Shown here: piece after piece, positions 16,846-34,132 of the stretch | How positions within the stretch are numbered: position 1 is the stretch's first letter | How the letters are laid out: each line of letters starts with the position of its first letter | Assembly (NCBI RefSeq): GCF_002087085.1 | Contig: NZ_MWQY01000021.1 | Span: 1-64,000 of the forward strand | Length of the DNA: 64,000 bases | Reading direction: 5' to 3' | The notes under the pieces: model-generated | Told to the model about the DNA's origin: nothing | Seen by the model: the letters and a program-made list of their open reading frames with translations, nothing else | The model's database searches: none | Program-made: the position numbers and the translations under genes

Positions 16846-16989
16846 AGTATCCCTCCCAAGGCGTTTCCATGCACTAAATATATCTCGTCTAACTGATAAA
16901 ATCATAACAATAGTTAATTTTTCACAAAAAATAGGCTTACTGTACTTAACACATTTTAGCGATACCATCATCTTCGACGGGTTAATACA

Positions 16990-17933: not shown

Positions 17934-17951
17934 TATTGTTTCTCTTTCCTT

Positions 17952-18791
17952 TTAACTCTTGATCCGAGATGATTCATCTCGCTCCCATTTCTTTCTTCCA
18001 GTAAATTGATTCATCTTACCCTTAAATTTGGCAACGAGTGAAACATAAATGTAAATAAGTGAATCTTTTATTGAAACTTTTTGTTCAATCATTCGTTTTA
18101 AACTTAATGTCGGTGAAGTGGTCTCATTGTTAAATAGTTTAGGGTATTTTTTTCGTAATTCATAAGTTCCACCATGTGATCTGCTTTTTATTTTTATAAG
18201 ATTAGCAAGATCCCTTGGGGTAGTAACAACTACGCTGCTCGATTTCACTGTAACCCTTTCTGAAGGGTGGAAGTGCAGCCGAACAAAGCCGTCATCTGCT
18301 ATTATATCTGGAAATTCTTCAAACCGTCTGCGTCCCTCTTCAGATAAACCATAAGCACCGGCGATTCTCCCGGATTCAAAATAGGGCATCCGTCTCCAGA
18401 CCCTATAATATGCTTTAACTGCTGAACTGGCCGTTGAATCGTCAAAAATAAACTCTGGTGCTGCTGCTAAAACACCGACCTTCTCAAGTTCATCGGCAAC
18501 TTTTTTAAGGTCTGCAAAGGTAAAAATGATGTCAGAATCTACATAAAAACGAGGAAAGCTTGAAACAAGTTTATCCCCGATATTAAGTGATTGTACCTTT
18601 GATGGAATATCTGATTCTATTACCGTTATTGGTCCCGGTATGCTTCTTGCGACTTCAGCCGTTTTATCAGAACAACCATTGCAAACAACAACGACTTCCA
18701 TTTGATCAGGAGGAGCACCTTTTGTAATAGCCCTTAAAGATCGAGCAATAAATTTCTCCTCATTGTGAGCAGGCATCACAACAGATATCAT
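17952..18791 (-). CDS. Glycosyltransferase family 2
   Basis: SVVMPAHNEE, NGCSDKT, YVDSD. Confidence 0.9.
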   Translation of the reverse strand: MISVVMPAHNEEKFIARSLRAITKGAPPDQMEVVVVCNGCSDKTAEVARSIPGPITVIESDIPSKVQSLNIGDKLVSSFPRFYVDSDIIFTFADLKKVADELEKVGVLAAAPEFIFDDSTASSAVKAYYRVWRRMPYFESGRIAGAYGLSEEGRRRFEEFPDIIADDGFVRLHFHPSERVTVKSSSVVVTTPRDLANLIKIKSRSHGGTYELRKKYPKLFNNETTSPTLSLKRMIEQKVSIKDSLIYIYVSLVAKFKGKMNQFTGRKKWERDESSRIKS

Positions 18792-18792
18792 T

Positions 18793-19719
18793 CTAAACAG
18801 TCTCCCATTCGCTTCGCCTATACCATACTTTTTTCCAGGAATGAAATGATGGAGAATTATTTTTTTTGACCATAGAAATAAAAAACAAGACTGTCATCCG
18901 TGAAAAAGTCCACATTTCCAGCATCAAGATTGCATATTTTCTCTTAATCCCTTTCCAGTGTTTCCGGAAAAGCTGAACCTTAGCTGTTAGTAATCTGATC
19001 ATCTTATCCTCTTTAACTACTTCTGACGCACCCCCAAAATGGATAATTTTAGCGTCAGGGACAATAATACAAAACCTATTAATAGCCGCCGACCGCAGAC
19101 AAAGGTCGGCATCTTCTCCATACATATAAAACCGTGTATCAAAGCCTTCTAGACGATTCCATAAATCTCTATGGATCAGCAAAAAGCACCCGGTAACAAT
19201 GTCTACCCTGCGTGGTCTTTTCCAGTCCCACCACGATAGAGATTCCGGATTAAAGAAGCGTGACTTTCTGAATATAGAACTCAGGCCCGAAGCTGTAGAG
19301 AACAAACTCCATACGGTTGCCATATTCCAACCCGCAGTAGGATTACGGCTCATATCTCCAAAGAAGGTAGATCCACCATATATTCCGTATTCGGTATTTT
19401 TATCAGCAAAGTTCACAAGCTTATCGATAGCACCATCAAGAACCAAAGTGTCAGGATTCAATAATAAAATATAACGACCTTCAGCTTCTTCCGCTGCAAT
19501 GTTGTTGGCCGCGGCGAATCCCTTGTTACTGTAGAGACGGATTAATCGTACGCTGGGAAAACTTTTTTCTATCATATCAGCCGAATCATCGGTGGAATTA
19601 TTGTCTATTACCAGTATTTCAAAGTTAACCTGTTTCGTCTGCTCATAGACAGACGCAATGGCAGCACAGGTAAGCTCTGCAGTGTTGTAACTAACTATAA
19701 TTACAGAAACATCAATCAT
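18793..19719 (-). CDS. Glycosyltransferase family 2 (WbbL/rhamnosyltransferase-like)
   Basis: MIDVSVIIVSYN, DNNSTD, GFAAANN, LLNPD, FYMYGEDADLC. Confidence 0.9.
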   Translation of the reverse strand: MIDVSVIIVSYNTAELTCAAIASVYEQTKQVNFEILVIDNNSTDDSADMIEKSFPSVRLIRLYSNKGFAAANNIAAEEAEGRYILLLNPDTLVLDGAIDKLVNFADKNTEYGIYGGSTFFGDMSRNPTAGWNMATVWSLFSTASGLSSIFRKSRFFNPESLSWWDWKRPRRVDIVTGCFLLIHRDLWNRLEGFDTRFYMYGEDADLCLRSAAINRFCIIVPDAKIIHFGGASEVVKEDKMIRLLTAKVQLFRKHWKGIKRKYAILMLEMWTFSRMTVLFFISMVKKNNSPSFHSWKKVWYRRSEWETV

Positions 19720-20350
19720 TGTCTTCTTCAATTTCTCCGTTTGAGATAGCTTGTTTAAACAGATAAACAGTGACACCAATGGAAGCCTGATTTCCTAAAT
19801 CGCTAATATCTGTTCCGATTCTGTAATTAAAAGAAGTATCTCCGTCGCTGCTGCTCCGGCTAAATGCAAAACCCATACCATATTCAGCAAAAAGAGACAA
19901 AAAATCAAAAACATAAATCTCCGCACCTAACAATGCAGTTATACCGGCTGTATAAGATGTAGTTTCACTGCTGCTTAAATCATCTTCACCATCGAATTCG
20001 TACCCTAATATCAGTGAACCTCCCCAATAGGGAGATACCCTGCCGGTAAAAAAAGGTCGTTCATAGGTGCCACCCAATCCCATTTCAAAAATATTGTCGC
20101 TGCTCTCATAGTCCACATTGACTGAAGCACGTATGGCATAATCATCGGCTTTTAACTTGATGCCGACTCCGGACTGATAGTCTCCCAGGCTCAGCAGGAT
20201 ATCGCTGGTGGTAAATATCAGGCCAGGTGTATACCGACCAAAGATTAGCCCATCGGGCTCTTTGTCTGATGTATCACTTGATTCCTGTGCGTTCACAATA
20301 GCGATATTTACAAACAGGAAAAATAGAACAAATAGAAAACTCTTTTTCAT
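19712..20350 (-). CDS. Small outer-membrane beta-barrel protein
   Basis: Signal peptide (...VNA-QE), alternating amphipathic strands, SPYWGG, LFAEYG, terminal strand IGVTVYLF. Confidence 0.65.
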   Translation of the reverse strand: MKKSFLFVLFFLFVNIAIVNAQESSDTSDKEPDGLIFGRYTPGLIFTTSDILLSLGDYQSGVGIKLKADDYAIRASVNVDYESSDNIFEMGLGGTYERPFFTGRVSPYWGGSLILGYEFDGEDDLSSSETTSYTAGITALLGAEIYVFDFLSLFAEYGMGFAFSRSSSDGDTSFNYRIGTDISDLGNQASIGVTVYLFKQAISNGEIEEDND

Positions 20351-20379
20351 ATTACACCTTTTAAAACGACAGTATGTAA

Positions 20380-20847
20380 TTATTCTTTTGGCTGAGTGAG
20401 CACCAAATACCAGCCACCGGCAGGTTTAGCAGAAAAATCGGTAGAGGAGTGTATATCCAATTCCCGACCGTTGTTGAGAACTTCAGAAACTCCCAGTTCA
20501 TAGGTTCCATATCCACCAAGTTCCACGGCTGAGAGTGTTATACAAAGCTTGAAACCTGAAGTCGACTTAATATAATTCCATTTTTCTTGATCAGGATTTC
20601 GATAGTAAATATTGAAATGCTCAATTGAAGATGGCAAATCAGGTATTCGGGGTTCTTCAGCTTCCCAGGCCAGCATAAAGGAGTCCCGTTCTAAATGGAC
20701 AGGTAGGGCACCCATCTCTCCAAAGAAATCTTCCAGGGGTAGTTTACAGCCGGAAAGGTATATAAGGGCAAAGAAAAATAGTAAATACCGCAGCAGGCCG
20801 TCTGGAAAATTGTAAAAACCGCCAGGTTTGCATGACTTCATCTCCAC
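20380..20847 (-). CDS. Lipoprotein with fibronectin type III-like domain (paralog of 38875..39303)
   Basis: Lipobox LSG-C; DSFMLAW, NIYYR, YELGVS, GWYLV. Confidence 0.6.
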   Translation of the reverse strand: MEMKSCKPGGFYNFPDGLLRYLLFFFALIYLSGCKLPLEDFFGEMGALPVHLERDSFMLAWEAEEPRIPDLPSSIEHFNIYYRNPDQEKWNYIKSTSGFKLCITLSAVELGGYGTYELGVSEVLNNGRELDIHSSTDFSAKPAGGWYLVLTQPKE

Positions 20848-21038
20848 CTACCACTCTGTTCGCAATACTTGGTTGCCGTATACGTCAAACTAATAAAAAC
20901 TCCCTTAATAAGCTTATCTCCTTAATTCCTTAAGATCCAACTTATCAGGTAACTCAAAAGACTATCCTGCTTTTATGTCATGATTATGGCAGATTGACAG
21001 CAATACACCTGCTGAGTATTGTCAGTTAGGGGGCCAGC

Positions 21039-22250
21039 ATGGTGTATGAATACAGCTCCAACGAAGAAAAGCTGATTATAGCTCTTCTTAATAGAAACAA
21101 TGTCTCTGCTCTCGACATTGCCGAAAACACAACCCTGAATACACGAAAACTGGTATCCATGGCTGACCGGCACATGGTTTTCCCCCTCATTCTTGATCGC
21201 CTTTTCCACCTTCCTCTTCAGAATATCCCCGCTGATGAACTCTTCCCGAAGGGCAGAAGAATCATAATCGCTGCTGCTGCAGTCAATATGAAACTCCGCA
21301 GTGAACTTTCTCGTACTACTCGTATTCTGGGAAAAGAAGGGATCAGCTTTCTTCTGATAAAGGGTTTCGCCGTCGACAAGAATCCGCTTCGTAAAACCAA
21401 CGATATTGATATTCTCATTCACAGGGAAGATCTCCACAGGACTGTAGCCCTTCTCGAAAAAGCCGGCTATAACTATACCGGAAGCGGGGTTATGTCAGCA
21501 AAAGAAATACAAAACCCCTTCGGCACCCTTGACTGGAACAACCAGTTTCAGTTCGAAACTCCCTCCGGTGGAGTCAGCCTCGAAGTGCACACAAATCTTT
21601 TTGAAAGGGACAGAATACGCCTCGAAAAACTCGACAAGTTTCTGGATAATGTGGATCTCTTCTGGAAAGAAAGCCGTTTTGACGAAGAACTCGGATGCAG
21701 TATCCCCTCCACGGAAGCCACACTGGCGCTCTTATGCGTCCATTCGTCAACAAAGAGATCCCCGGCACACAATACCTATATAGCACGGCACGCCTACGAC
21801 ATACTGCAAACCCTCAAGTGTGGTGTAGACCAGAGCCGTTTCATCTCGCTGTGCACTTCCTGGGGTCTGGAATACTACGCCTATACTGCTTTATACCTGA
21901 CATCCTTGTGTCTGAATACTGACGCTCCCCTGAATGCAGCAGCACCACTTGAAGATTTACTTTCAAAAAGATGTAAACGTCTCGCGGATATACACCTGAA
22001 ATGCTTTCGCGGCCTTGGGCATGCGTCTTTTTTCTATCGGATGCTTTTTGCTCTTCTTATGCCGATGGCTATTGGCGGAAACCTTCGCAAAATTCTCAGG
22101 CACTATCGTCTTATTGTTTTTCCGCCTCTATGGCAGCAGGAAAACCTCTTTGGCGTAAGGCGTGACTCGGCGGCTATATACCTGACGTATCTGTACGGAC
22201 CCTTTGTACGCGCCTTTGTTATTATGAAGCGCTGGTTATCAGATGGCTGA
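21039..22250 (+). CDS. Nucleotidyltransferase (NTP_transf_5 type), lasso-cluster associated
   Basis: LLIKG, RKTNDIDILI, LEVH motifs; this family occurs in paeninodin/pseudomycoidin-type clusters. Confidence 0.8.
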   Translation: MVYEYSSNEEKLIIALLNRNNVSALDIAENTTLNTRKLVSMADRHMVFPLILDRLFHLPLQNIPADELFPKGRRIIIAAAAVNMKLRSELSRTTRILGKEGISFLLIKGFAVDKNPLRKTNDIDILIHREDLHRTVALLEKAGYNYTGSGVMSAKEIQNPFGTLDWNNQFQFETPSGGVSLEVHTNLFERDRIRLEKLDKFLDNVDLFWKESRFDEELGCSIPSTEATLALLCVHSSTKRSPAHNTYIARHAYDILQTLKCGVDQSRFISLCTSWGLEYYAYTALYLTSLCLNTDAPLNAAAPLEDLLSKRCKRLADIHLKCFRGLGHASFFYRMLFALLMPMAIGGNLRKILRHYRLIVFPPLWQQENLFGVRRDSAAIYLTYLYGPFVRAFVIMKRWLSDG

Positions 22251-22275
22251 TAAAAATCTTTTCCTCATCAAGCGT

Positions 22276-23727
22276 TTATAAATCTCTGCGCACTATAACG
22301 TAGTACACTCCTCCCTGAAGTTTAACATCAAAGCTTATACTTTCACTCCCAGGTAAAGGGGCTCCTACAGAGACAAGGCGCCCAGCAATATTATAAAGAT
22401 ACATTCCTATACCGGCCTCGTTTTCCGGAATCTCCAAAGAGATTTCCATAACTCCTGCATCCGCGTGTATTTGCCAGCAATGAGAAAAACTCCCCTCCTC
22501 TATCCTGCGGGCAGCGAAACCAGTAATGTTTTCATAGAGATTTATTCCGAAGGACAGTGCCGCCACAGGGTCGATGAGACCCTTTCCGTAGTACGGGTCC
22601 GTGTAAGGTTCTCCGAGGTCCACAGCGGTATTCTCCATAGCAGCTCGGATCTCAGCAGGAGAAAGCGAAGGTTGAGCAGACTTCAGTAGCGCTGCGAGGG
22701 CAGAAACATGGGGTGCTGCCTGCGAGGTACCCGCAAGGTACCAGAAATCTTCATTCCCGTATTGAACTGCCGGTAAAGGTACATAAATTACTGTATGCTG
22801 CAGGATCGCATCCCGCAGTCCGTCACCTACTACATTTGCCGTTGAGCCGCCTCCGGGTGCCACGACATCCAGTTCAGGACCGTAATTGGAATATTCCGTC
22901 CGGTTGCCTGCGAAATCAACTGCACCGACGGCTACAACTTCCTCAAACGCTGCAGGATACCGGACACTATCGTTGTTGTTGCCCGCTGCAGCTACAATAG
23001 TGACGCCCATGGAAACGGCGTTCTGAATGGCCGTATGAAGACCTTCCATGCCCTCCGGAGTTACAGCTTCGGGGTCCCCAATGCTGAGATTAATAATATC
23101 GGCGCCGTTGGAAGCAGCCCAATCAATCCCTTGAGCAATAAGGTCGCTGCTGCTCATCATATCGTTTTGAATGACCTTGACCGGCATTAAACTCACCCCG
23201 AAGGCCATCCCGGCAGTACCAAAGGCATTGTTCGTCGCCTGTGCTATTGTGCCAGCAACGTGGGTACCGTGTCCGATAGAATCCGAAGTGTCACCGTTGT
23301 TGTCAACGATGTTTCTTCCAGTAACAAAATTTACCCCGTTAAAATCCGGGAGTTCTTGATTTATACCCGTATCAAGAACAGCAACCACAACGCTGGGGTC
23401 TCCTGTTACAGAAGCCCAGACTGCCGGCATTTCGAGATGCTGCAGGTTCCACTGCTCATTATACAGTGTATCGTCGGGAGTAGAATCAATATCCGGGTTG
23501 TATACCGGGCCGTTATAAGGATCAAAATCAACCCCAGGACTATCTGAAACAGGAACAAAATTGTCTAGGAATTTCGAAAACCAGGTACCCGACAGTGTAT
23601 ATGAGGATGTGTCTGTTAGAACATCCGACTCAATTTTATCCGAATCAAGGCTGCAGGAAATAAAGTAAAAAAACTCAATAAAAAAAAAGAGGTATGTAAT
23701 TACAGTTGAATACCTGGTATTAATCAC
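22276..23727 (-). CDS. Subtilisin-like S8 serine protease, probable lipoprotein, with a C-terminal beta domain
   Basis: Catalytic triad VAVLDTG / HGTHVAG / GTSQAAPHV; AAAGN oxyanion site; FIS-C lipobox-like. Confidence 0.9.
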   Translation of the reverse strand: MINTRYSTVITYLFFFIEFFYFISCSLDSDKIESDVLTDTSSYTLSGTWFSKFLDNFVPVSDSPGVDFDPYNGPVYNPDIDSTPDDTLYNEQWNLQHLEMPAVWASVTGDPSVVVAVLDTGINQELPDFNGVNFVTGRNIVDNNGDTSDSIGHGTHVAGTIAQATNNAFGTAGMAFGVSLMPVKVIQNDMMSSSDLIAQGIDWAASNGADIINLSIGDPEAVTPEGMEGLHTAIQNAVSMGVTIVAAAGNNNDSVRYPAAFEEVVAVGAVDFAGNRTEYSNYGPELDVVAPGGGSTANVVGDGLRDAILQHTVIYVPLPAVQYGNEDFWYLAGTSQAAPHVSALAALLKSAQPSLSPAEIRAAMENTAVDLGEPYTDPYYGKGLIDPVAALSFGINLYENITGFAARRIEEGSFSHCWQIHADAGVMEISLEIPENEAGIGMYLYNIAGRLVSVGAPLPGSESISFDVKLQGGVYYVIVRRDL

Positions 23728-25562
23728 ACGACTTCTCTTTCCTGATAATTCCTCGCCTGAGTTTCGAATAGTTCAGCATAGATACCACCCTCAGAGAGGA
23801 GCTCTTCGTGAGTACCACTCTCAACTATGCGACCCGAGTTAAGCACAAAGATTCTGTCTGCCATCCTCACCGTGGACATTCTGTGACTGATAAGAAGAGC
23901 TGTCCGGCCATCGAGAATATCCCTGAAACCGCTGAACAGTTCGAATTCCGCTCGGGGATCCATTGAACTGGTTGGTTCGTCAAGAACAACCACAGGGGCA
24001 TCGCGGAAGAATGCTCGTGCAAGAGCTATTTTCTGCCATTGTCCGATACTGAGTTCACTTCCCTTATCAAAGAAACGACCAAGAACTTCATTATAGCCTT
24101 CGGCAAGCTTCTCTATTTCTTCGTGGATGCCAGCTTTCCTGGCGGCATTTTCGATATCAGGCGAAATCTCAGAATAATCCACGTTACCAAACCAGATATT
24201 ATCCCGCACCGTCAAATTGTAATGGGCGTAATCCTGGAAGATAACTCCAAGCTTTTTTCTCAACTCCTCAGGTTCCATTCCCCGGATATTTGTTCCGTCC
24301 AGGAACACACTGCCCTTATCCGGGTCGTAGAGACGGCAGAGGAGTTTTACCAGTGTTGTTTTACCTGCTCCATTCAAACCCACAAGCGCGGCAACCTCAC
24401 CATGATGGAGACGAAGGTTTACACCGCGCAGGATCTCCTTGTCCGTTCCGGGATAAGTAAACCAGAGATTTTCGAAAGCAATGGCCGCATGTTGATCTTC
24501 AACCTGCTTGGTATGCAGGATGTTTTTTTCAGCAGCGATCCGGGATTTGATGTCAAGAAACTCGTAGAGGTTTGTAAGAAACAGATTGTTCTCGTAGAGC
24601 TTCGCTGCGTTTTCCAGTACCGCCTGAAGAAAGGACTGCCCCCTTTGAAAGGCCTGGTAAAACATGACAAAGGCCCCCAGGGAGATTCTACCCACCAACG
24701 CATCCCGGGCAACCCAGAAGTATGCACCAAACACGAGGACTGTGGAAAACACGTGAGATGCGGCCCCGTATTTGGCAGTTCTGAGATCCAGAGCAAGACG
24801 AATCTTTCGCAGCTCTTTCCTCAAAGCCTGAAAACGCCTGATAAACGTAGGACCAAGGCCGAACATCCTGATTTCTTTCGCGAATTCCCTTCCCACGAGC
24901 ATAAAGTGGTAATACGCAGCCCTGCGCTCCCGGGAGGTATACCTGCGCTCCAGTAGATACTCCCGTTCGGAAAATAGAATACGGATGAACAAAGGCGGTA
25001 ACATGGCGGCAACAAGCAGTAAAAGTACCTGGGGCTTGAAAGAAAAGAGAAGCCAGCCGACCCCGATCAGAGAAATACCGTTCCGAAACAGGGCAGCCAG
25101 GGAGTTTACAATGACCCCGGGCCTGTAAACCGCCTCTTCCTGGGCTCTGTGCAGGGTATCCTGATAGGCGGAGTTCTCGTAGTACTCAAGGTCTACAGCG
25201 GTCGCCTTCTTCTGGATCACATCGTGCATGTGATCTACAACCCGTCTGCTTTGCTCTTTGTTGACAACGAGGCCCAGGGTTCTGGAAATACCGGTCAGCA
25301 GTGCTGCCATGCCGACCGCTGTAAGTACAATAAGCACTTTTCCAGACATAGCTTCAGGACCGGCCGCAACCGTGCCTTCCGCAACAGTATCAACCAGGAC
25401 TTTCAGCAGATAGAGGGTCACAACAGGAAGCATACCCTGAATAAAGAGCAGCACAAGATTCGCAATGGTCCAGCCCCGAGAGCTTTTCCATACGAAACCA
25501 AATGCCCTCTTTACATTGAAAGTTGTAAGTACAACGTCCTTAAGCTTTTCCTGAATTTTCAT
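23724..25562 (-). CDS. ABC exporter, fused TMD plus NBD (lasso cluster D protein)
   Basis: GLNGAGKTT, LSIGQWQK, VVLDEPT, ISHR; ATGA overlap with the kinase stop. Confidence 0.9.
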   Translation of the reverse strand: MKIQEKLKDVVLTTFNVKRAFGFVWKSSRGWTIANLVLLFIQGMLPVVTLYLLKVLVDTVAEGTVAAGPEAMSGKVLIVLTAVGMAALLTGISRTLGLVVNKEQSRRVVDHMHDVIQKKATAVDLEYYENSAYQDTLHRAQEEAVYRPGVIVNSLAALFRNGISLIGVGWLLFSFKPQVLLLLVAAMLPPLFIRILFSEREYLLERRYTSRERRAAYYHFMLVGREFAKEIRMFGLGPTFIRRFQALRKELRKIRLALDLRTAKYGAASHVFSTVLVFGAYFWVARDALVGRISLGAFVMFYQAFQRGQSFLQAVLENAAKLYENNLFLTNLYEFLDIKSRIAAEKNILHTKQVEDQHAAIAFENLWFTYPGTDKEILRGVNLRLHHGEVAALVGLNGAGKTTLVKLLCRLYDPDKGSVFLDGTNIRGMEPEELRKKLGVIFQDYAHYNLTVRDNIWFGNVDYSEISPDIENAARKAGIHEEIEKLAEGYNEVLGRFFDKGSELSIGQWQKIALARAFFRDAPVVVLDEPTSSMDPRAEFELFSGFRDILDGRTALLISHRMSTVRMADRIFVLNSGRIVESGTHEELLSEGGIYAELFETQARNYQEREVV

Positions 25563-26488
25563 GCTCCGTCTCCGAGGCATTCTTCTTTTTCCGACAGCAC
25601 ATAATCTACCCGGGCTGCGACTTCCTGGAGTACATCGAAGCGACGCGGACGGGCAAGACGAAAAACCCGTACTTTGGAGGCGAGATTAGCAATCTCCCTG
25701 AAATAGCGTTCCTGACCAAAAATGGGCAACAGTTGTCCATCGAAAAGGGCTCCGTACCAGTGGGGCAGGAGCGCGCGAACAGCTTTAAACCCCGATAACC
25801 TCTCAATCACAATTTCATCGGCTGTTTCGAGCACAAAAACCGCTTTCAGGAAGGCCTGTGTCGTGATAAAACGGTCGTTTACCGTGCGAGACATCTTTTT
25901 AAACCCGGGGAAAATCATGGAAAGCGTGTCATCTCCGTCTGTCAGAGCCTCGGCGGATTCTGTCCAGAGTTTTGAGCGGGGAAAACCAGGGGAAACCAAG
26001 GGATGTTCGTTATCGAAAGAAACCGCCGTTAGGTCGTCGCTTATCATTCCATACCCTGCATTGTACATGGCGGCGGCCATTGTCGATTTTCCCTCTCCTT
26101 TTACAGCCGCAAAGGCAACAGCAGCTCCTGTAAGGGGACACGCTACCCCTGCAGCGTGGAATACCGCCCATCCCCTTTGTATAAGAAGGACTCCAAGGAC
26201 AGGCCCTGTCAAAACCAGGCGTACAAGGGCTTCATCAACTCCATGCCGGGGAGATATTGTCACCTGCCTTCCTTCCTGTACAAGGAATGAACCAATAGCG
26301 TTCCAGTGCAGAAGAACTCCTCCATTGAAGGGAACCATGAGACGAACGTTCTCCCCCTCGGGACAACCGGGAGGAGGGGCAAGCTCTCTCGTCAGCATGA
26401 TCACATCCGGTTCTCCCTGGGTGGGAGAAAATTCCGGTATATGTATATCTGATCCGATGCGTAACCCGAATGCGGTGGAATAGTACAT
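25559..26488 (-). CDS. HPr-kinase-like lasso peptide kinase (PadeK/ThcoK type)
   Basis: MYYSTAFGLRIGSD, FHAAGV, KGEGKST, ISDD; AGAGGA RBS; directly downstream of the precursor. Confidence 0.8.
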   Translation of the reverse strand: MYYSTAFGLRIGSDIHIPEFSPTQGEPDVIMLTRELAPPPGCPEGENVRLMVPFNGGVLLHWNAIGSFLVQEGRQVTISPRHGVDEALVRLVLTGPVLGVLLIQRGWAVFHAAGVACPLTGAAVAFAAVKGEGKSTMAAAMYNAGYGMISDDLTAVSFDNEHPLVSPGFPRSKLWTESAEALTDGDDTLSMIFPGFKKMSRTVNDRFITTQAFLKAVFVLETADEIVIERLSGFKAVRALLPHWYGALFDGQLLPIFGQERYFREIANLASKVRVFRLARPRRFDVLQEVAARVDYVLSEKEECLGDGA

Positions 26489-26585
26489 GGTTCCTCTTGT
26501 CACTTTTTATACATGGCAGGCTGGCGGGAAGGGCTCACAGCCCCTAAAAAATGTAATGAAAAAGAACGATTAGAAAATAAGCGCG

Positions 26586-26606
26586 CCGGCTAATTGTATC
26601 AGCCGG
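26586..26606 (-). terminator. Short stem-loop overlapping the precursor stop codon (possible stabiliser or weak terminator)
   Basis: CCGGCT-N9-AGCCGG, followed on the minus strand by CGCGCTTATTTTCT. Confidence 0.3.
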
Positions 26607-26721
26607 ACACACCCCAGGAAAAGATCCAGAAGCTGTCTGAGTTTCCTCTCCAGCCTTCCCCACGGGTCAGTTCGGCGATATCACCGAGAATGACCAATTG
26701 GGGCGATTCATATTTTTTCAT
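26599..26721 (-). CDS. Lasso peptide precursor A, 40 aa: MKKYESPQLVILGDIAELTR-GEGWRGNSDSFWIFSWGVSG
   Basis: Hand-translated, not in the ORF track; GGAGG RBS; leader YxxPxL...G...T(-2); core Gly1 with Asp9 acceptor; lies between cyclase and kinase. Confidence 0.93.
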   Translation of the reverse strand: MKKYESPQLVILGDIAELTRGEGWRGNSDSFWIFSWGVSG

Positions 26722-26756
26722 AAATACCTCCGAAAAAAAGAACTTTTATAAATTTG

Positions 26757-28805
26757 TTATTCAACAGCAGAATACTGTGAGCCCTTCCCGCCAGGCTGCT
26801 TTGAATTACCATTTTTCATCCAGCGGTCCAGAACCGCTGCTTGCCATATATTGGTGATAACAGTGTCTTTATCCTGCCCGCCCCCATTCTTGAAGTCTCC
26901 CAAAGTTTCCTTGAGACGTTCCTGGTTCATAAAATGCTTGGCATTATTCGAAAGATACTCTGTAAGACCAAGAATGCGGGAGCTTTCAAAACGCTTAAGC
27001 CCTTGCCGAAGAACATCAGCAAGATCCCCCTTACCTGAACGGGTCCTTATTTCCTCCGGAAGAATCCCCTTAAGGGACTCACGGAGTATATATCTGCTGA
27101 CTCCATTCCGCAGCTTGAGATGCGGGGGAACGGAAAGACAAAACTCTGCAAGTCGGGCATCGCAGAAAGGATGACGTACCTCTATATCATAATAGGAGGC
27201 CATTCTATCCAGGCATTCCAGCGTATAAGGAAGAGCACCGGAAGTCAGCCTGTCGTAATGACTCTGCCGGAGATGTGCAGGGAAACGGGATGATCGGTAA
27301 CGATTGTCTATCTCCTGGAGTTTATCTTTTACCCTGTACTTGGCTGCAAGCCCGACATCCATAATACCCGTGTCGAAAACGGAAGATTTTTTACCGTACG
27401 AAATCAACGCCTTAAGCCCGTGGTCTATCAGCAGCTGTTTTCGGGAATACCCGAATAATCGATGTATATGCCGAAGGGCATGAAAATATTTGATCCACTG
27501 TCCGGTTTTCGCAAGGTATTCCAGGTAAGGAATACCGTGGGCCTTGAGCATTCCTGTCTTCGAAGCATACGTGCGGCTGTTATCAAAGGCACGAACAACC
27601 GCCTCGCATTCTTCCGCAAAGATTTGCCAGGAACCGCTCTGAACGAGCTGCAGAAGAAAATCGATTCCGTGTGAGACCGTTGTGTCTCCGTCCTCTCCGT
27701 CGAGGATAATTTTTACCCCGTCATCCCTTGCTGCTCGATAAATATCCAGATGTATAAAATAATTCGCTCCGTAAAACGGCCCATCATGAAGCCATATCAT
27801 AGCGTCCAGGTCCGATAGAGGACTTCTCTGATCAGGGTGGACTTTCCTGCTCACGACCCCCTGGCGATCATGTAAAGCAGCGTCTATCCAATGGCGTTCG
27901 TCCGCGGAAGGTACACTATCGAAAACCGCTGAGTACGTAAAAAGCGGCAGCCGGCTCTGCTTTTCGAGAATATCACGGGAAGCACATGCAATGGATGAGG
28001 AATCGAGTCCTCCGCTCAGGGTGCAACCGATCTTCGATTTTCCCCGGAGCCGGTTTTCGACCGAACGGAGGAAGACGTCCTTAAACGCATCGAAATACTC
28101 TTTTTCAGAGGAGTATTCCGCTTCCCGGTACGGGTCGAGTTTCCAGTAGTGCTCTTTGTGAATAGACTCACGGGAAACAAGGACACGGTGTGCCGGCTCC
28201 AGGCGTTTTACACTCCGGTACATTGTTATTGTTTTGTCCCCAAGAAGAAGTTCAGGGAAAAAGTGTACGCATATTCGTTCTTCGTTTATATCCTCTGGGA
28301 CTTCCGTCAGAGCAATCAGTGCTTTGGGTTCAGACGCAAAGGCGAAAATATGGTCGGAACTATAAAGACACAAGGGCTTCACACCAAAATGGTCTCGGGC
28401 GCAGAACAGGGTTTTCGTGCGTATGTCCCAGACAGCAAATGTGAAATCACCATAGAAATGATCTACGCATGATGTACCCCACCGGCGGTATGCAGCAAGT
28501 ACAATCTGGCCATCAGTGACATTTGCACCAAAACATTCAGCGGGGTCTAAAGCTGCGGTTATTTCAGTCCGATTGTCCAGTCGAATATCTCCGACTAAAT
28601 ACAGGTTGTCATCTTTGAGAAGCGTGCCGCCAAAGGTCTCTTCGATGGAATTTGAAGAAAATCCAAAAGCGAAAGCTACGGGACCATCAGATATTGACTG
28701 GATACCCTTTCCACAGCGATGAGGCATGGACAGGATCATGTTCTCTACCGTTTCCGTCTGCGCAGGTCTGCCATCCCGGTAGAATAATCCTGCTATTCCG
28801 CTCAG
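26757..28805 (-). CDS. Lasso peptide cyclase C (asparagine-synthetase-like), probable CTG start
   Basis: In-frame extension gives (M)SGIAGLFYRDG; RLDNR, RDHFGVKPL, LSGGLDSSS, DGEDGD, RHPFCD; no Cys2 nucleophile. Confidence 0.9.
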   Translation of the reverse strand: MSGIAGLFYRDGRPAQTETVENMILSMPHRCGKGIQSISDGPVAFAFGFSSNSIEETFGGTLLKDDNLYLVGDIRLDNRTEITAALDPAECFGANVTDGQIVLAAYRRWGTSCVDHFYGDFTFAVWDIRTKTLFCARDHFGVKPLCLYSSDHIFAFASEPKALIALTEVPEDINEERICVHFFPELLLGDKTITMYRSVKRLEPAHRVLVSRESIHKEHYWKLDPYREAEYSSEKEYFDAFKDVFLRSVENRLRGKSKIGCTLSGGLDSSSIACASRDILEKQSRLPLFTYSAVFDSVPSADERHWIDAALHDRQGVVSRKVHPDQRSPLSDLDAMIWLHDGPFYGANYFIHLDIYRAARDDGVKIILDGEDGDTTVSHGIDFLLQLVQSGSWQIFAEECEAVVRAFDNSRTYASKTGMLKAHGIPYLEYLAKTGQWIKYFHALRHIHRLFGYSRKQLLIDHGLKALISYGKKSSVFDTGIMDVGLAAKYRVKDKLQEIDNRYRSSRFPAHLRQSHYDRLTSGALPYTLECLDRMASYYDIEVRHPFCDARLAEFCLSVPPHLKLRNGVSRYILRESLKGILPEEIRTRSGKGDLADVLRQGLKRFESSRILGLTEYLSNNAKHFMNQERLKETLGDFKNGGGQDKDTVITNIWQAAVLDRWMKNGNSKQPGGKGSQYSAVE

Positions 28806-29269
28806 AACAGTACTCCTTCGATTCCCTCGAACAATTTGAAATCCTTAATGCCGGGGATATCTCCAACTACTATTTTCCCGTCCGATTCAAGCCAGGCGTG
28901 GGCGGTAAAATCCGATCCACTTGAACGAACGGCACCTATACGGAGAACCGTGTTATAGCCATAACGGGCAAAAAGGATTCGGCCGGCCAGGGCTTTTGGC
29001 AGACAGTCACAGTTTCCATGAAATATACCGGAACAGCGTTCAACAGCAAGACTAATATCATCTGCAGAAATCTTCACATTGCTGACGGATTTTCTTTTTT
29101 CTGCCAATTTGTTGACATTGGAAAGAACAGTTTTAAAAGGTTTTTTCCTGAGAGACTTCCGGACCCGACTAAGCCACAACCAGGAACTAAGAAATAAGTA
29201 TTTTTCCGCCGAAGTAAGCAGGAAAAATTTTTTAAACCTTTCGATCGACAATTTCAATAAGACCTTCAT
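28802..29269 (-). CDS. Lasso leader peptidase B2 (transglutaminase-like)
   Basis: CLPKALA (catalytic Cys), LRIGA, FTAHAWLE (His). Confidence 0.9.
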   Translation of the reverse strand: MKVLLKLSIERFKKFFLLTSAEKYLFLSSWLWLSRVRKSLRKKPFKTVLSNVNKLAEKRKSVSNVKISADDISLAVERCSGIFHGNCDCLPKALAGRILFARYGYNTVLRIGAVRSSGSDFTAHAWLESDGKIVVGDIPGIKDFKLFEGIEGVLF

Positions 29270-29516
29270 CCTTGAGTTTTTCCAGTAAAGCCTGGATATC
29301 TGGTGAACAAACTTTTAAACTAACGTCAAATTCCTCAGTAACTGCATCACAAAGGTTGCGCACAAGCACCGGAGTGGTCATGAGTTTCCACACGAATGCA
29401 CCAACCTCGTTAAGTCCAAAATAGATGCCCCTCTCGACATGCATTAAAACGGCCTCGCCATCCAGCTGTGTGGCTAAAACACCATCGTGTGCCTTTACTT
29501 TCGTTTCCAAATCCAT
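29232..29516 (-). CDS. Lasso B1, PqqD-family RiPP recognition element
   Basis: LDGEAVLM, YFGLNEVGAFVWKL, EFDV, DIQALLEKLKDEGLI. Confidence 0.92.
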   Translation of the reverse strand: MDLETKVKAHDGVLATQLDGEAVLMHVERGIYFGLNEVGAFVWKLMTTPVLVRNLCDAVTEEFDVSLKVCSPDIQALLEKLKDEGLIEIVDRKV

Positions 29517-29766
29517 TTTTAAACCTTTTTTTAAGATTAATAGTCCTGAAGAATCCCTTCCATTATGGTTCTATCCATAGAGCTCCAGAACGCTGTAAAT
29601 CAACTTCATTCCTCACATAGAACACAGACAAATATCATCGATTTTTCAATCGACGTTTTGTCGTATTCTCTGAGGAAAATCGTCCGACCTTCCGATGCCG
29701 CCGAAACAGGCTATCCAGGCCATTATGTAAGGTACATACAACGGGAAGTCCTATCCCGCAGTATGC

Positions 29767-30474
29767 TTATAATTCAAAAACAACTCCGGTTCTGATTGTC
29801 ACACTAAAATCCATCTTGTCAGTCATTACCGGCTCGCCACCGATATAGAATGTCCGGCCTTGGGGGCTCTTTTTCATTGCTGTCAGGTTGCCGCCGTATT
29901 TGAGAAGCGTTTCTCTTTCCGGAGCGATCTCACGCCCCTCCTCGGTTTCAAGACCGGTTAACTGGATGGTGTAATTATAATTCCGGTAGCCACCAAAGAT
30001 ACCGAAACGCAGGTGAAAAGAGTCACTGAGGGCAAAGTCTCTGAGTAGTTGAAGCTGGATATTATAGCCATGACCTTCGGTTTGCAGGTCATTATCCTCG
30101 AAGTAACTGCTATCAAGAATCGAATAGCCATAGCTTCCTGACAATTCCAGGGAGACCGGGGAGAAGTTCTCCTGTTTTACAAGTACAATCCCGTAGAAAA
30201 TCCCGATGTTGGTTTCGGTTGAGGATTGGGACTCGATCTCATCCATATTGACAGAGAATACCGCGCCCACATCGAGGACTCCGCCGATTGAATACCCAAG
30301 ACGACCTCCAACATCTTTAAGGCTTCCGTCGTCGTTCAATGAAGATTCAATGTTAAACAGAGCTGCGTTGATCCCGCTACGGGTATAACTGCTCTGAGCA
30401 CAGACCGGAACGCTTATTCCCAGAAGCAGTAAAATAAGGAGCCATATTCTTTTGTGAGCAGTTTTTTTATACAT
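29767..30474 (-). CDS. Outer-membrane beta-barrel protein
   Basis: Signal peptide (...VCA-QS), amphipathic strands, C-terminal strand TGVVFEL. Confidence 0.6.
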   Translation of the reverse strand: MYKKTAHKRIWLLILLLLGISVPVCAQSSYTRSGINAALFNIESSLNDDGSLKDVGGRLGYSIGGVLDVGAVFSVNMDEIESQSSTETNIGIFYGIVLVKQENFSPVSLELSGSYGYSILDSSYFEDNDLQTEGHGYNIQLQLLRDFALSDSFHLRFGIFGGYRNYNYTIQLTGLETEEGREIAPERETLLKYGGNLTAMKKSPQGRTFYIGGEPVMTDKMDFSVTIRTGVVFEL

Positions 30475-30490
30475 TGAACCCTTTCCTTTT

Positions 30491-31489
30491 TTACAGCACG
30501 TTTTCAACAAGCTGCGGAGCCATATGCAGGTAGGAAGTTGTCCTCCGCTTCTGTTCTATATCCGCGTAGACCCGTTCCAGCTGTTCGAGATTTATGCCGG
30601 CGGCGGAAGCAACCTGTTCCCGGGGAATACCCTTGTTTTTTCCGTACAGGCACAGATCCATCTTTTTGTAGGAGAGGGAAAAATAGAACTCCTCCTGGGA
30701 CTGGGGCAGGGAGTACGTATCCGTTGTAGGCGGTCTGCTGCGGATCTTCTCCGGTACACCGAGGTACTCCGCAAGCTGATACACCTGACTCTTGTACAGG
30801 TGGGCTATGGGTTTTATATCCGCCGCTCCGTCGCCAAGCTTGACGAAAAATCCCTGGTCGTATTCCAGGCGGTTCGGGGTGCCCGTAACCGCATAATTCA
30901 GCCGGTCCGCATGATAGTACTCGAACATCTTGCGCACCCGCTGTTTAAAGTTTGTTGCCGCCACAATCTCCAGGTAGGACTTATGGTCCAGACGCTTTTT
31001 TATTTCCCTGCCCTCCGGCGAAACAGCTACAAGGGAAAACAAACGTAACTGGCCGCTTTCCAGAACTCCGGGAAGTACAATCTTTGCCCGCCATCCCGGT
31101 CCATATTCCGGAATAAGTCTGCGGTAGGCCGCCTCTTGTCGGGCATAGCACCCCAAGGCAGTAAGAACTTCGGTTATATCCTGGTGCCCCGCCTCTATGC
31201 CGAAGTGCCCTGCTACCAGTCCGCTTAATTCCAGGGTATCCTCCGAGGAGTGTTGCTCCGGCATCTGCAGGCCGAAGACCTTATCCGGCCCCAGGGCCCT
31301 GACGCACAATGCTGCGACTGTGCTGCTGTCTATGCCGCCGGAAAGGGCTACCACTACACCCTGACGCTTCATTTTTAAGGCGATGGTCTCCTGAATCCAT
31401 CGACAGATACGTTCAACCTCAGCTGACGCATCAATCTCCAGGCTCTTCAGATTAAACACAGACTCAACTGTTCGCACCGGCCTCTCCAT
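30491..31489 (-). CDS. nadE: NH3-dependent NAD+ synthetase-like enzyme (NadE paralog)
   Basis: LSGGIDS, NFKQRVR, GTPNRLE, GFFVKLGDG, PIAHLYKSQV. Confidence 0.75.
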   Translation of the reverse strand: MERPVRTVESVFNLKSLEIDASAEVERICRWIQETIALKMKRQGVVVALSGGIDSSTVAALCVRALGPDKVFGLQMPEQHSSEDTLELSGLVAGHFGIEAGHQDITEVLTALGCYARQEAAYRRLIPEYGPGWRAKIVLPGVLESGQLRLFSLVAVSPEGREIKKRLDHKSYLEIVAATNFKQRVRKMFEYYHADRLNYAVTGTPNRLEYDQGFFVKLGDGAADIKPIAHLYKSQVYQLAEYLGVPEKIRSRPPTTDTYSLPQSQEEFYFSLSYKKMDLCLYGKNKGIPREQVASAAGINLEQLERVYADIEQKRRTTSYLHMAPQLVENVL

Positions 31490-31754
31490 TCAGCTTTCTC
31501 CGTACAAAGGCGTCCACCGCGTTTACCGAATCCAGGTTTTCCGGGACCAGCTCATCGTCTTCTATGCTTATTGCATAGGTATCTTCCAGGTAACCTATCA
31601 GTTCAAGGATTCCGGTTGAGTCAATTATTCCTCTTTCAAGGAAGGAGTCATTGTTATCAAAATTCAAACCATCCTGACCAAACATGAAATTGGTGACAAT
31701 GAACTCCTTAAGAGCATTTTTTACCTCATTAGATTTAACCACGATATCAGACAT
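31464..31754 (-). CDS. Acyl carrier protein
   Basis: GIIDSTGILEL (phosphopantetheine Ser), ENLDSV. Confidence 0.9.
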   Translation of the reverse strand: MSDIVVKSNEVKNALKEFIVTNFMFGQDGLNFDNNDSFLERGIIDSTGILELIGYLEDTYAISIEDDELVPENLDSVNAVDAFVRRKLNGEAGANS

Positions 31755-31779
31755 TTACTATCTCCCTCTATTTATTAAT

Positions 31780-32928
31780 TTATTCATACACCTTTTGTTC
31801 ACCAAAAAAACGGCGGGCCACACTTTCACCGACCATTGCAATAACCGCCGGCAGGGTAAGAAGAATGATTTTCAGATCCAGTGCCAGGGTCATTTTCCGG
31901 GAATAGGCAATATCCAGAGCAATCATCTCACGGAAGGTCAGCTTGTTCTTGCCGCTCACCTGCCACAGCCCGGTCAAACCGGGAACGATATTAAAGCGGT
32001 GGGCGTGCCAGCGAAGATAACTTTCCGCTTCGTAGGGAATGCAGGGCCGGGGACCTACAAGACTCATCTGGCCCCGTAAAATGTTTATCAGCTGGGGCAG
32101 TTCATCTATACAGGCCTTCCGCAGTATCCGGCCGCCGGGAATTATTCTCGGGTCCTGTGCATCCAGCTTTTCCATAGGTACGTCACTCTGGGTTATAAAG
32201 TTTGTAGCGTGCTGGGAGTGAATACCCTGATCGTTATTGACATGCATGGTCCGGAATTTAAGAAAGGTAAAATTCTGCCCCTTGTACCCTACCCGCACGG
32301 ACTTATAGAAAACCGGTCCCGGGGAAACTATTTTTATATAAAGCGCAACAAGAGCAAGCAGAGGTGCAAGAACAACGAGACCAAAGAGGGACCCGAATAT
32401 ATCCAGCAGACGCTTCCAGGCCGGCATGTTTCTGCTCAACCTTTTAATCAAGCGAGTGTCGATTCGGAGCTTGTTATTTTTATAGATCCCGGTCTCGTCG
32501 GCATTGTTGCCGCTCTCGTTATGGTGTTTCTCATCGGGATATCGGAATACCGCCAATGTATAGTGCGGGTAGGTGCCGTTCTGATATCTGGAATCCAGAA
32601 TACTCTTAACTTTATTTGCAAACAGATTTGCCCCTTCGATTTCCGTTGCGGTCAGCAGAACACAGAGGCTTGTTTCATCGTACCAGCCAAGGTGATCAAT
32701 AAGGCGGGTGCAGTTTTTCAACACCTCAATTAGACTTTTTATCTTATCCGCACCCCCTTTTTCTTCCGGGGTTAAAAGTAGCCCGGAAAAACAGCCGCCC
32801 TCCCGGTCTACCCTGCTGCGTTCATATTGCAGTATCCGGTCCATGGCGTCTTGAGAATAGATTCCATATTTTCCCAGGTCTTTGGTTAACGACGGACTCC
32901 ATAAGGTTCCCACTTTTACTCTTCTCAT
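31780..32928 (-). CDS. Priming sugar (phosphoglycosyl) transferase with a degenerate GGDEF-like N-terminal domain
   Basis: KRLLDI, KFRTM, DPRI, DELPQLINIL, SLVGPRP, PGLTGLWQVSG. Confidence 0.9.
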   Translation of the reverse strand: MRRVKVGTLWSPSLTKDLGKYGIYSQDAMDRILQYERSRVDREGGCFSGLLLTPEEKGGADKIKSLIEVLKNCTRLIDHLGWYDETSLCVLLTATEIEGANLFANKVKSILDSRYQNGTYPHYTLAVFRYPDEKHHNESGNNADETGIYKNNKLRIDTRLIKRLSRNMPAWKRLLDIFGSLFGLVVLAPLLALVALYIKIVSPGPVFYKSVRVGYKGQNFTFLKFRTMHVNNDQGIHSQHATNFITQSDVPMEKLDAQDPRIIPGGRILRKACIDELPQLINILRGQMSLVGPRPCIPYEAESYLRWHAHRFNIVPGLTGLWQVSGKNKLTFREMIALDIAYSRKMTLALDLKIILLTLPAVIAMVGESVARRFFGEQKVYE

Positions 32929-32943
32929 ACTAATGCCCCCCTT

Positions 32944-33312
32944 TCAGGCATCTTCTTTTAAATCCTCTGCCGGGGGAGTGTCGATGTCTCCCATGCTCGG
33001 CAGAATGGTATAGCGCTTGTCGAAACTGATTCCAACGCCCCCCTGCTCAATCCTGATGACTTCTCCTCTTACCTTTACACAAACTTGTTCGTGAAGCTTG
33101 AAAAACTCCTGAAGTTTGTTAATGGAGAGGTAAAGTTCGATCTCCACCCGGCGTCCCAGCTCAAGGGGTTGCTTCATCTTCAGGAAAGTACCTTGAGATG
33201 AGACGTCCCGAGTGTAGGCTTGAAACCCCTTTAAACCACGATGACTGTTAGCAACCTTCACCACGGCAGGAACGACAAGATCGTATCTCGTCATACCACG
33301 TTTTTCTTCCAT
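32944..33312 (-). CDS. PilZ-domain protein (c-di-GMP receptor)
   Basis: RxxxR (RGMTR) and DxSxxG (DVSSQG). Confidence 0.85.
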   Translation of the reverse strand: MEEKRGMTRYDLVVPAVVKVANSHRGLKGFQAYTRDVSSQGTFLKMKQPLELGRRVEIELYLSINKLQEFFKLHEQVCVKVRGEVIRIEQGGVGISFDKRYTILPSMGDIDTPPAEDLKEDA

Positions 33313-33463
33313 AACTTTCTTCCGTGGAATAAGTGTACGCCTCTGATAAGAGAGATGTAAATAATGCGGACTCATGATTTTTTGAAGAAAAAAAAGCTGC
33401 TTTATTTAAATATCAGGTACTAGTCTTTTTACAGAGAGGTAACAATTGCGCACTAGTCATGTT

Positions 33464-34132
33464 TTATAAATTTCGTGCCGCCCAAAGAGCGGCCTGAAGT
33501 CGGTTGGAGACCTGTATCTTTTTATAGATATTGTACATGTGGGTTTTAACAGTGTTTACGCTTATGCATAATCTGTCGCCGATCTCTTCGTTACCGACGC
33601 CGGCACTCATAAGAGAGAGAATCTGCTGTTCCCGCTGGGTCAACTGAACAGCCTGGCCTGCATCTTTCTTGTGCCCCTCGACATGGTTCATTATATACCG
33701 CAGCAGTATCTGACGGCTGATCCATACCTCTCCCTCAAAGATTGCATTTACCCCTTTAAGAAAGAGCTCCATACTGTCGTCGGTGTAAAAAAATCCCCGT
33801 ACTCTTTTGGTTAGGGCCTTTACCTCGGATTCAGAATAGTCTGAAAGATTATAAAACGCTATCAGATGGTTATTTAGCTGCGGATTGTCAATTACACTTC
33901 GTGTCACAGTCTCGATGTCTGCGTCCTTACAATCGATAAGAAACAGAAAGCTGCTCTCCCCGGAGGAAAGAGTATCCGGGTTGAACCTGGAGCCCTCAGG
34001 GAAATTATTCAGGGAATGACTGTAGATCGTGCAGTCGACATCCAGCTCTTTTTTTATGGAATACACCAACATCTGGTTACTGAGATTGTCGGCACTCATT
34101 AAAACAATCTGTCGGCCGCTCGGACTATCCAT
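33464..34132 (-). CDS. LuxR-family regulator, CsgD/VpsT-like
   Basis: Atypical REC-like N-terminus, GEVWISR, C-terminal HTH LTQREQQIL...ISVNTVKTHMYNIYKKI. Confidence 0.85.
   Translation of the reverse strand: MDSPSGRQIVLMSADNLSNQMLVYSIKKELDVDCTIYSHSLNNFPEGSRFNPDTLSSGESSFLFLIDCKDADIETVTRSVIDNPQLNNHLIAFYNLSDYSESEVKALTKRVRGFFYTDDSMELFLKGVNAIFEGEVWISRQILLRYIMNHVEGHKKDAGQAVQLTQREQQILSLMSAGVGNEEIGDRLCISVNTVKTHMYNIYKKIQVSNRLQAALWAARNL

Follow-up and report, generated by a model that had tools for sequence, protein, structure and literature searches.

A probable class II lasso peptide gene with a Ser-Gly end in a kinase-bearing accessory cluster

Lasso peptides, whose scaffolds are compact and very stable, have antibiotic and receptor-binding activities, and new cores are of use as leads. 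The locus described here raises the question of whether a 40-amino-acid (aa) open reading frame (ORF), lasA, is a genuine lasso precursor gene and, if so, how its peptide is tailored. The ORF lies in a stretch of 64,000 nucleotides (nt; positions 1 to 64,000 of contig NZ_MWQY01000021.1, assembly GCF_002087085.1; hereafter the window), where an earlier note, made from the letters of the DNA, had proposed a lasso precursor. In all probability (about 0.87) the ORF is the genuine precursor gene (A) for a lasso peptide of class II that has a Gly1-Asp9 ring and a complete accessory cluster. The peptide is an addition to the kinase-associated lasso group, a class already known, and the general picture of lasso biosynthesis is unchanged. 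The points of note are a Ser-Gly terminus shared with uncharacterised peptides, a near-identical core in the database peptide P0165, a co-transcribed S8 peptidase and a helix bracketing the precursor gene. Published accounts are cited by PMC identifier.

The precursor gene and its relatives

The ORF is present at 26599..26721 as quoted in the earlier note, on the minus strand, which that note had left unsaid. Its translation, MKKYESPQLVILGDIAELTRGEGWRGNSDSFWIFSWGVSG, is 40 aa long and is followed by TGA. The gene is composed as follows.

26599..26721, minus strand: lasA precursor gene, 40 aa, matching NF033521 and the family profile
26662-26721, minus strand: lasA leader MKKYESPQLVILGDIAELTR, from the translation
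26602-26661, minus strand: lasA core GEGWRGNSDSFWIFSWGVSG, from the translation
26599-26601, minus strand: lasA stop codon TGA, from the translation
26727-26731, minus strand: Shine-Dalgarno sequence GGAGG, with a 5-nt spacer to the ATG at 26719-26721, read from the DNA

The ribosome-binding site that had been claimed is thus in place, 5 nt ahead of the ATG. The leader carries Y-17, P-14, L-12, G-8 and T-2, and includes both the YxxPxL motif described for lasso precursors (PMC6784204) and the Thr at -2 reported by the earlier note. The precursor passes the NCBIfam model NF033521, "lasso RiPP family leader peptide-containing protein" (RiPP, ribosomally synthesised and post-translationally modified peptide; 28.5 bits, E 1e-6, cutoff 19). 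The core of 20 aa is free of Cys, which leaves no disulfide, so that steric plugs would have to hold the lasso. It starts with G1, Gly being one of the first residues expected of a lasso core (the others are Ala, Ser and Cys), and an Asp or Glu at position 7-9 is expected to close the macrolactam. D9, as the sole acidic residue at core positions 7-9, is the only one competent for the proposed class II ring. The tail aromatics F11, W12, F14 and W16 are located where they had been placed and are available as candidate plugs. Recomputed monoisotopic masses of the core are 2229.9868 Da (linear), 2211.9763 Da (cyclised) and 2291.9426 Da (with one HPO3), reproducing the values of 2211.98 and 2291.94 given before.

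A gap of 35 nt separates the ORF from the lasso cyclase gene upstream of it, and a profile of 17 precursor-family sequences has lasA as its only match in the 4.2-Mb genome (77.8 bits), this search having found no second precursor gene. Together, the NF033521 score, the cyclase gene immediately upstream and the sole genomic match of the profile speak against a chance ORF. A protein identical over all 40 aa already figures as a called gene in a collection of 5.8 billion proteins and likewise in the ESM Atlas, where the nearest cluster, with a score of 0.90 and 194 features in common, bears the name "Lasso RiPP family leader peptide-containing protein".

Relatives were sought with a profile of three peptides, namely lasA and the precursors of genomes G167 and G663, which belong to the same class as the window genome. 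Against 1.84 billion representatives this profile gave 32 matches at E<=1e-3, of which 31 were retrieved (P0164, of 2535 aa, was left out). After P0166, P0174 and P0178 (111-268 aa, with repeated leader-like units) had been set aside, 28 short peptides remained, ending in Ser-Gly (10), Ser (10), Ser-Gly-X (3) or otherwise (5). In a 17-sequence precursor alignment Y-17, P-14, G-8, T-2, G1, G6 and D9 are invariant, and the invariance of G1, G6 and D9 supports the Gly1-Asp9 ring. The core of P0165, GEGWNGSSDSFWIFSWGVSG, is identical to that of lasA at 18 of 20 residues, while its leader shares 11 of 19 aligned residues. A core that stays near-constant beside a leader that has drifted points to selection acting on the mature peptide. 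The longer proteins P0164, P0166, P0174 and P0178 (111-2535 aa) contain 2-9 tandem lasso-leader-like units (e.g. ...YE.P....IGRV.ELT...), and may be multi-unit precursors or unrelated repeats.

The supposition that the core is uncharacterised stands in one respect: neither the core nor its fragments had a match in the literature search, which did not cover supplements, including RODEO tables. It falls short in another, in that a core with 18/20 identity is already in public sequence data. The peptides of the P0165 group, listed at the end, are likewise absent from the literature searched. When the precursor was used in a word-indexed search of the 5.8 billion proteins, nothing but the precursor itself came back, comparison with the genomes of 40 relatives gave chance-level matches only (E >= 0.06), and a regular-expression scan of 95 related loci found no core like that of lasA.

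The operon, the kinase and the Ser-Gly end

The precursor gene stands in an operon of 7 genes, overlapping or closely spaced on one strand in the order B1-B2-C-A-kinase-ABC exporter-S8 protease (ABC, ATP-binding cassette), which is met by a convergent nucleotidyltransferase gene. All eight cluster genes are full length and without internal stops. Besides A, they are the following.

29232..29516, minus strand: B1, PqqD-like RiPP recognition element (RRE), 94 aa; PF05402 71.1 bits
28802..29269, minus strand: B2, transglutaminase-like leader peptidase, 155 aa; PF13471 66.5 bits, NF033537 71.1 bits (cutoff 33)
26757..28805, minus strand: C, lasso macrolactam cyclase; NF033535 589.6 bits (cutoff 525), PF00733
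25559..26488, minus strand: K, HprK-related P-loop kinase, 309 aa counted from MYYST; assigned by weak TIGR04352/TIGR04355 matches, motif and fold
23724..25580, minus strand: D, ABC exporter, 618 aa; PF00005, PF00664
22276..23727, minus strand: S8 subtilisin-like serine peptidase, 483 aa; PF00082 206.6 bits
21039..22250, plus strand: N, PF14907 "uncharacterised nucleotidyltransferase", 403 aa; PF14907 90.8 bits, convergent with the operon

The proposed precursor is therefore surrounded by a complete split-B lasso cluster, with B1, B2 and C all within 2.8 kb upstream on the same strand; their matches to PF05402, PF13471, NF033537, PF00733 and NF033535 each exceed the cutoff. The B2 gene overlaps the B1 gene by 38 nt, the exporter gene overlaps the end of the kinase gene by 22 nt, and the start of the S8 gene overlaps the exporter stop by 4 nt, the two being translationally coupled. 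The S8 protein begins with a hydrophobic segment ending ...FISC that is probably a lipoprotein signal; the enzyme may act in trimming or in immunity, or may be unrelated to the peptide. A 154-aa ORF at 20973-21437 (minus strand), antisense to the PF14907 gene and overlapping its start, is probably spurious.

A predicted complex of B1 with the precursor scored 0.59, against 0.01 for the best control, with contacts agreeing to at least 82% between runs and a partner pLDDT (predicted local distance difference test) of at least 53. The mark applied to such predictions is reached by 116 of 157 solved complexes and by 2 of 215 mismatched pairs, and scores of 0.60 or less by 18 of the 157 and by both passing mismatches; the model thus lends weak support to binding. 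RRE-leader complexes have been solved, and the pass may reflect likeness to them.

In the cyclase gene, the first ATG, GTG or TTG (ATG at 28739) gives a protein of 660 aa, whose match to the NF033535 profile does not begin until position 23. Codons for the conserved N-terminus SGIAGLFY stand in frame upstream of this ATG (28739-28805, minus strand), for which reason the likely start is the in-frame CTG at 28803-28805, a codon that overlaps the stop of B2 and has AGGAG 7 nt ahead of it. The cyclase homologue P0003 begins VSGIAGLFY, and the database copy of the cyclase (P0002) is called from an Ile codon instead.

In the kinase, residues H111, K134, D151 and D152 are invariant in an alignment of 36 homologues and match the His-Lys-Asp-Asp motif that lasso kinases share (PMC9266682). 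The AlphaFold2 model (pLDDT 94.4) is most similar to phosphoenolpyruvate carboxykinases and also matches the HPr(Ser) kinase 3tqf_B (E 7.6e-6, template modelling score 0.59 on the target); a sequence search of the PDB with the kinase gave 0 matches. The closest kinases in the 5.8-billion-protein collection are 44-54% identical, and for four of them the longest contig has the same length as that of a cyclase match (5669, 6819, 14978 and 54234).

Several observations weigh against reading the ORF as a lasso precursor with a complete, functional cluster. On NF033536 (lasso_PqqD_Bac) B1 reaches 70.5 bits, under the cutoff of 80, and the kinase has partial matches of about 30 bits to TIGR04352/TIGR04355, whose cutoffs are 200, and reaches no Pfam model. 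No canonical start codon precedes the conserved N-terminus of the cyclase, meaning that the CTG is used or that the N-terminus is about 22 residues short, and no RNA run containing the stretch is listed among public sequencing runs. The peptide itself ends ...V-S-G, departing from the terminal-Ser acceptor rule of kinase-tailored lassos. Candidate precursors picked by eye among the ORFs between C and K in five distant kinase-linked metagenome loci (L018, L020, L021, L024 and L025) are not Ser-ended either, so that the presence of a kinase alone does not predict a C-terminal phospho-Ser.

In the systems studied, lasso kinases work on the linear precursor inside the cell while it still has its leader (PMC9266682), and (poly)phosphorylate its C-terminal Ser (PMC9266682, PMC6993621). 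This Ser is the acceptor in all of the characterised enzymes, PadeK, ThcoK, SyanK and PsmK (PMC9266682, PMC6993621), and is described as "extremely conserved" in kinase-bearing clusters (PMC9266682). By analogy, it is likely, at moderate confidence, that the co-transcribed kinase phosphorylates Ser19, the only Ser near the C-terminus; this is an extrapolation, because the lasA precursor ends in Ser-Gly. For the same reason the phosphorylated mass given earlier, although arithmetically right, is less secure than had been implied. The PF14907 protein shares an invariant D122-I-D124 with its G167 and G663 homologues, corresponding to a DxD metal site. In pseudomycoidin, where the phosphorylated Ser carries phosphate plus one or two hexoses, the putative and uncharacterised nucleoside triphosphate (NTP) transferase PsmN depends on D134 and D136, and the placing of hexose on phospho-Ser requires it (PMC6993621).

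From the families present, a maturation route can be proposed for lasA. The B1 RRE would bind the leader via Y-17, P-14 and L-12, B2 would cleave after Thr(-2)-Arg(-1), and the cyclase would join the Gly1 amine to the Asp9 side chain. The predicted product is a 9-residue ring threaded by the 11-residue aromatic tail SFWIFSWGVSG (2211.976 Da), to be exported by the ABC transporter. At moderate confidence, the HprK-related kinase would phosphorylate Ser19, and pseudomycoidin serves as the model for a next step in which the phosphate may receive hexose from the PsmN-type nucleotidyltransferase; it is then the penultimate residue, and not the terminal one, that would be the acceptor.

A different account keeps lasA as a real lasso precursor and supposes that the mature peptide is not phosphorylated on Ser19 in its Gly20 form. 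In one version the S8 peptidase or a host carboxypeptidase, for example, first trims Gly20 and so puts Ser19 at the C-terminus as the canonical acceptor; in the other the kinase serves another substrate or plays no role, and the product is the plain 2211.976-Da lasso. Such an account would agree with the use of a C-terminal Ser by PadeK, ThcoK, SyanK and PsmK, with the coupling of the S8 gene to the exporter gene inside the same 9-kb block, and with the G167 and G663 loci, where no S8 homologue was found and the precursors end in Ser. However, the kinase step precedes leader removal and takes place on the intracellular linear precursor, whereas the S8 enzyme is seemingly exported, and would therefore meet the peptide too late. 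S8 subtilases are moreover endopeptidases and not single-residue carboxypeptidases. The end Ser-Gly is found in 10/28 relatives, with Ser-Gly-X in 3 more, a recurrence which suggests that Ser-Gly is itself a selected feature. On balance this account is rather unlikely, and modification of Ser19 within the intact Ser-Gly end is preferred.

The inverted repeat around the precursor gene

The transcript of the precursor gene is predicted to contain two structures, a hairpin at the stop codon and a helix that encloses the gene.

26579..26614, minus strand: 16-bp hairpin overlapping the A stop codon, then a U-rich tract; -22.6 kcal/mol, z -4.37, 0/200 shuffles as good
26775..26806, minus strand: bracketing helix, upstream arm, which falls within the cyclase gene at its non-conserved 3' end
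26509..26540, minus strand: bracketing helix, downstream arm, in the gap from the A stop to the start of the kinase gene

The hairpin, which was missed by a simple terminator scan, looks like an intrinsic terminator or attenuator. The two arms form an inverted repeat of 32 nt (26509-26540/26775-26806) that is 88% complementary, with a 20-nt perfect core, and they occur in just two copies in the genome. The repeat closes both the minimum-free-energy and the centroid folds around the ribosome-binding site and the entire A gene (z -6.75). Rfam gave 0 matches on 26300-27000, and among the literature matches listed there was nothing relevant on stem-loops in lasso precursor transcripts or on their processing by RNase.

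The best contiguous helix between the 120-nt flanks of the A gene was compared with 200 shuffles per locus, in the window and in related clusters.

Window locus: 21 bp, 0/200 shuffles as good
G663: 20 bp including two G.U pairs, 0/200 shuffles as good
G167: 11 bp, 9/200 shuffles as good

The other two bracketing-helix regions are L097 7630-7950 and L013 13400-13720. The five distant kinase-linked metagenome loci showed no significant bracketing helix (15, 63, 36, 35 and 153 of 200 shuffles as good). Across the window, G663 and G167 the arms are unrelated in sequence but similar in position, the upstream arm ending 37-52 nt short of the start codon and its downstream counterpart beginning 29-57 nt after the stop. 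A duplexfold test of the flanks, counting shuffles as good out of 300, gave 0 for the window, 16 for G167, 15 for G663, 7 for L021, 8 for L025, 34 for L024, 163 for L018 and 188 for L020; this test is noisy, and the contiguous-helix test was relied on instead.

An inverted repeat of this kind could also act as DNA, as an inversion switch (inverton) that flips the precursor gene on or off. The 20-nt perfect repeat is unique in the genome and flanks a 234-bp segment with the ribosome-binding site and the whole A gene, a geometry that resembles described invertons. Evidence against such a switch comes from several sides. The 9-kb block contains no recombinase gene, and the contigs of 4 public runs over 21000-29600 show no strand-changing joints, which is a weak test since contigs drop rare variants. 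The two G.U pairs of the G663 helix pair in the sense RNA only and not as DNA repeats, and the arms differ in sequence between loci while keeping similar positions. A switch is thus highly improbable, and the G.U pairs together with the missing recombinase favour an RNA role, through which the A message would be processed or stabilised. A mobile or repeated element was considered as well: inverton, miniature inverted-repeat transposable element and dispersed repeat were all rejected as the principal explanation, given the two genome copies only and the absence of a recombinase from the block.

As judged from the RNA folds, the hairpin after A and the 21-bp helix probably raise A mRNA relative to that of the enzyme genes. 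Drawing these strands together, a wider proposal can be put forward tentatively. The lasA cluster may represent an undescribed kinase-linked lasso sub-group marked by its GxGxxGxxD ring, its aromatic loop and a Ser-Gly conserved at the C-terminus, in which the kinase and then the PsmN-type transferase would modify the penultimate Ser, or the S8 lipoprotein peptidase would remove the Gly cap. Its A mRNA would be excised or stabilised by the bracketing helix, in the manner of the RNase III stems of rRNAs, an architecture that recurs with unrelated sequences in two clusters of the same class. Taken as a whole, this proposal is possible but doubtful.

Distribution of the cluster and comparison with known systems

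The cluster occupies an accessory block, which was delimited by a DNA search with window 14000-33900 against five same-genus genomes.

20688..29668, no strand: accessory block of ~9 kb with the whole cluster, between conserved flanks and missing in two same-genus genomes

In one of these genomes (G002) the flanks that match the window up to 20687 and from 29669 sit 267 bp apart, and in another (G001) the same flanks are 756 bp apart. The adjacency of the flanks indicates that the cluster in its entirety, with the genes for S8 and PF14907, forms a presence/absence block of ~9 kb. No integrase, tRNA or flanking direct repeat was seen at the block. It sits among glycosyltransferase, sugar-transferase, acyl-carrier and Asn-synthase-like genes, probably of polysaccharide synthesis. 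A sugar-transferase gene with an N-terminal extension (31780-32928, minus strand) lies ~2.5 kb from the lasso cluster, and its homologue in the distantly related G167 (L013 6711-7919; 48% identity) is also ~2.5 kb from the lasso cluster there, reflecting a shared neighbourhood or chance.

The cyclase, used as a query, has matches in 2/301 sampled genomes of the class (G000 and G167), 1/401 sampled genomes of the phylum, 1/7 genomes of the order, and 2/38 genomes of the order of G167 (G167 and G663). Among the 5.8 billion proteins, the cyclases nearest to it have 44-48% identity, and one is named as from a Spirochaetaceae metagenome-assembled genome. A locus search of genome contigs with the cyclase gave 1 weak locus. 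The metagenome locus search with a 14-sequence cyclase alignment gave 80 loci at 24-40% identity, none of them among the 44-48% relatives, because the search patterns were generic.

Public sequencing runs also contain pieces of the cluster. Contigs of run X2 cover 26/30 bins of 21000-29600, mostly at 90-99% identity, and a close relative of the cluster therefore exists in another sample. Runs X1, X3 and X4 have scattered pieces only; one 159-nt contig of X1, labelled as marine metagenome, matches 26542-26683 without differences.

Such a patchy distribution (1/7 genomes of the order, 1/401 sampled in the phylum), together with a cyclase devoid of a canonical start before its conserved N-terminus, could mean that the cluster is silent or decaying and that the ORF, although of lasso-precursor descent, yields no product here. 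However, none of the eight genes is shortened or broken by an internal stop, their family models show all of them to be complete, and a good Shine-Dalgarno sequence, AGGAG, stands 7 nt before the in-frame CTG that restores the cyclase N-terminus. The core is also 90% conserved against P0165 while the leader has drifted, and the relative in run X2, with roughly 90-95% DNA identity, covers 26/30 bins. A silent or decaying cluster is improbable in view of these observations, and an intact lasso gene with its accessory cluster remains the preferred reading.

The lasA cluster offers a direct test of whether lasso kinases accept only a C-terminal Ser. Since 10/28 relatives share the Ser-Gly end, the answer on kinase specificity would hold for a group and not for one peptide. 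An RNA helix that brackets a gene could moreover explain how a RiPP operon over-produces its precursor.

Among known systems, capistruin-type class II lassos resemble lasA in their Gly1-Asp9 macrolactam, their length of ~19-20 residues, the absence of disulfides and the bulky side chains that serve as plugs. By contrast, their clusters have a fused B protein and are not known to carry a kinase, and their cores are unrelated in sequence to that of lasA.

The systems of paeninodin (Paenibacillus dendritiformis C454) and of ThcoK and SyanK share with lasA the split B1/B2, contiguous C-A-K genes and an ABC exporter. They also have an HprK-related kinase with His-Lys-Asp-Asp, a likeness based on the motif and on its description. 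In paeninodin, as in lasA, the ring is closed on an Asp, which is reportedly residue 9. The paeninodin ring begins with Ala and that of lasA with Gly, and the acceptor in paeninodin is the C-terminal Ser, whereas the lasA peptide ends in Ser-Gly. The lasA cluster carries an S8 peptidase and a nucleotidyltransferase in addition to the genes of paeninodin-type clusters. The gene order differs as well, being B1 B2 C A K D around lasA and C A K B1 B2 D in firmicute kinase-lasso clusters (PMC5067487).

The pseudomycoidin cluster (Bacillus pseudomycoides DSM 12442) combines a kinase, PsmK, with a DD metal site and the putative NTP-transferase PsmN with a DxD motif (PMC6993621). Their counterparts in the lasA cluster are the kinase with D151-D152 and the PF14907 protein with D122-x-D124, the latter likened to PsmN by motif. 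The PsmN gene lies between B2 and D, while N of the lasA cluster is convergent at the operon end. The precursor PsmA ends in Ser once a sequencing error in its last codon is corrected, unlike lasA with its Ser-Gly, and the two cores are unrelated in sequence.

The G167 and G663 clusters contain A, K, C, D, B1, B2 and N genes like the lasA cluster, at identities of 34% (cyclase), 33-35% (kinase), 47-49% (ABC exporter) and 35-36% (nucleotidyltransferase). Their gene order is A-K-C, and no S8 homologue was found in either locus. Their precursors share the GxGxxGxxD ring motif with lasA (cores GVGKLGWHD... and GTGGFGWND...), but the cores, at 35 and 34 aa, exceed that of lasA in length, are acidic and have Ser as their last residue. 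Closest in form is the group of Ser-Gly peptides, composed of P0165, P0167, P0168, P0169, P0173, P0177, P0179, P0185, P0187 and P0190. Their leaders differ from that of lasA, but all have the leader motif, G1, G6 and D9, the aromatic stretch after D9 and the C-terminal Ser-Gly in common with it.

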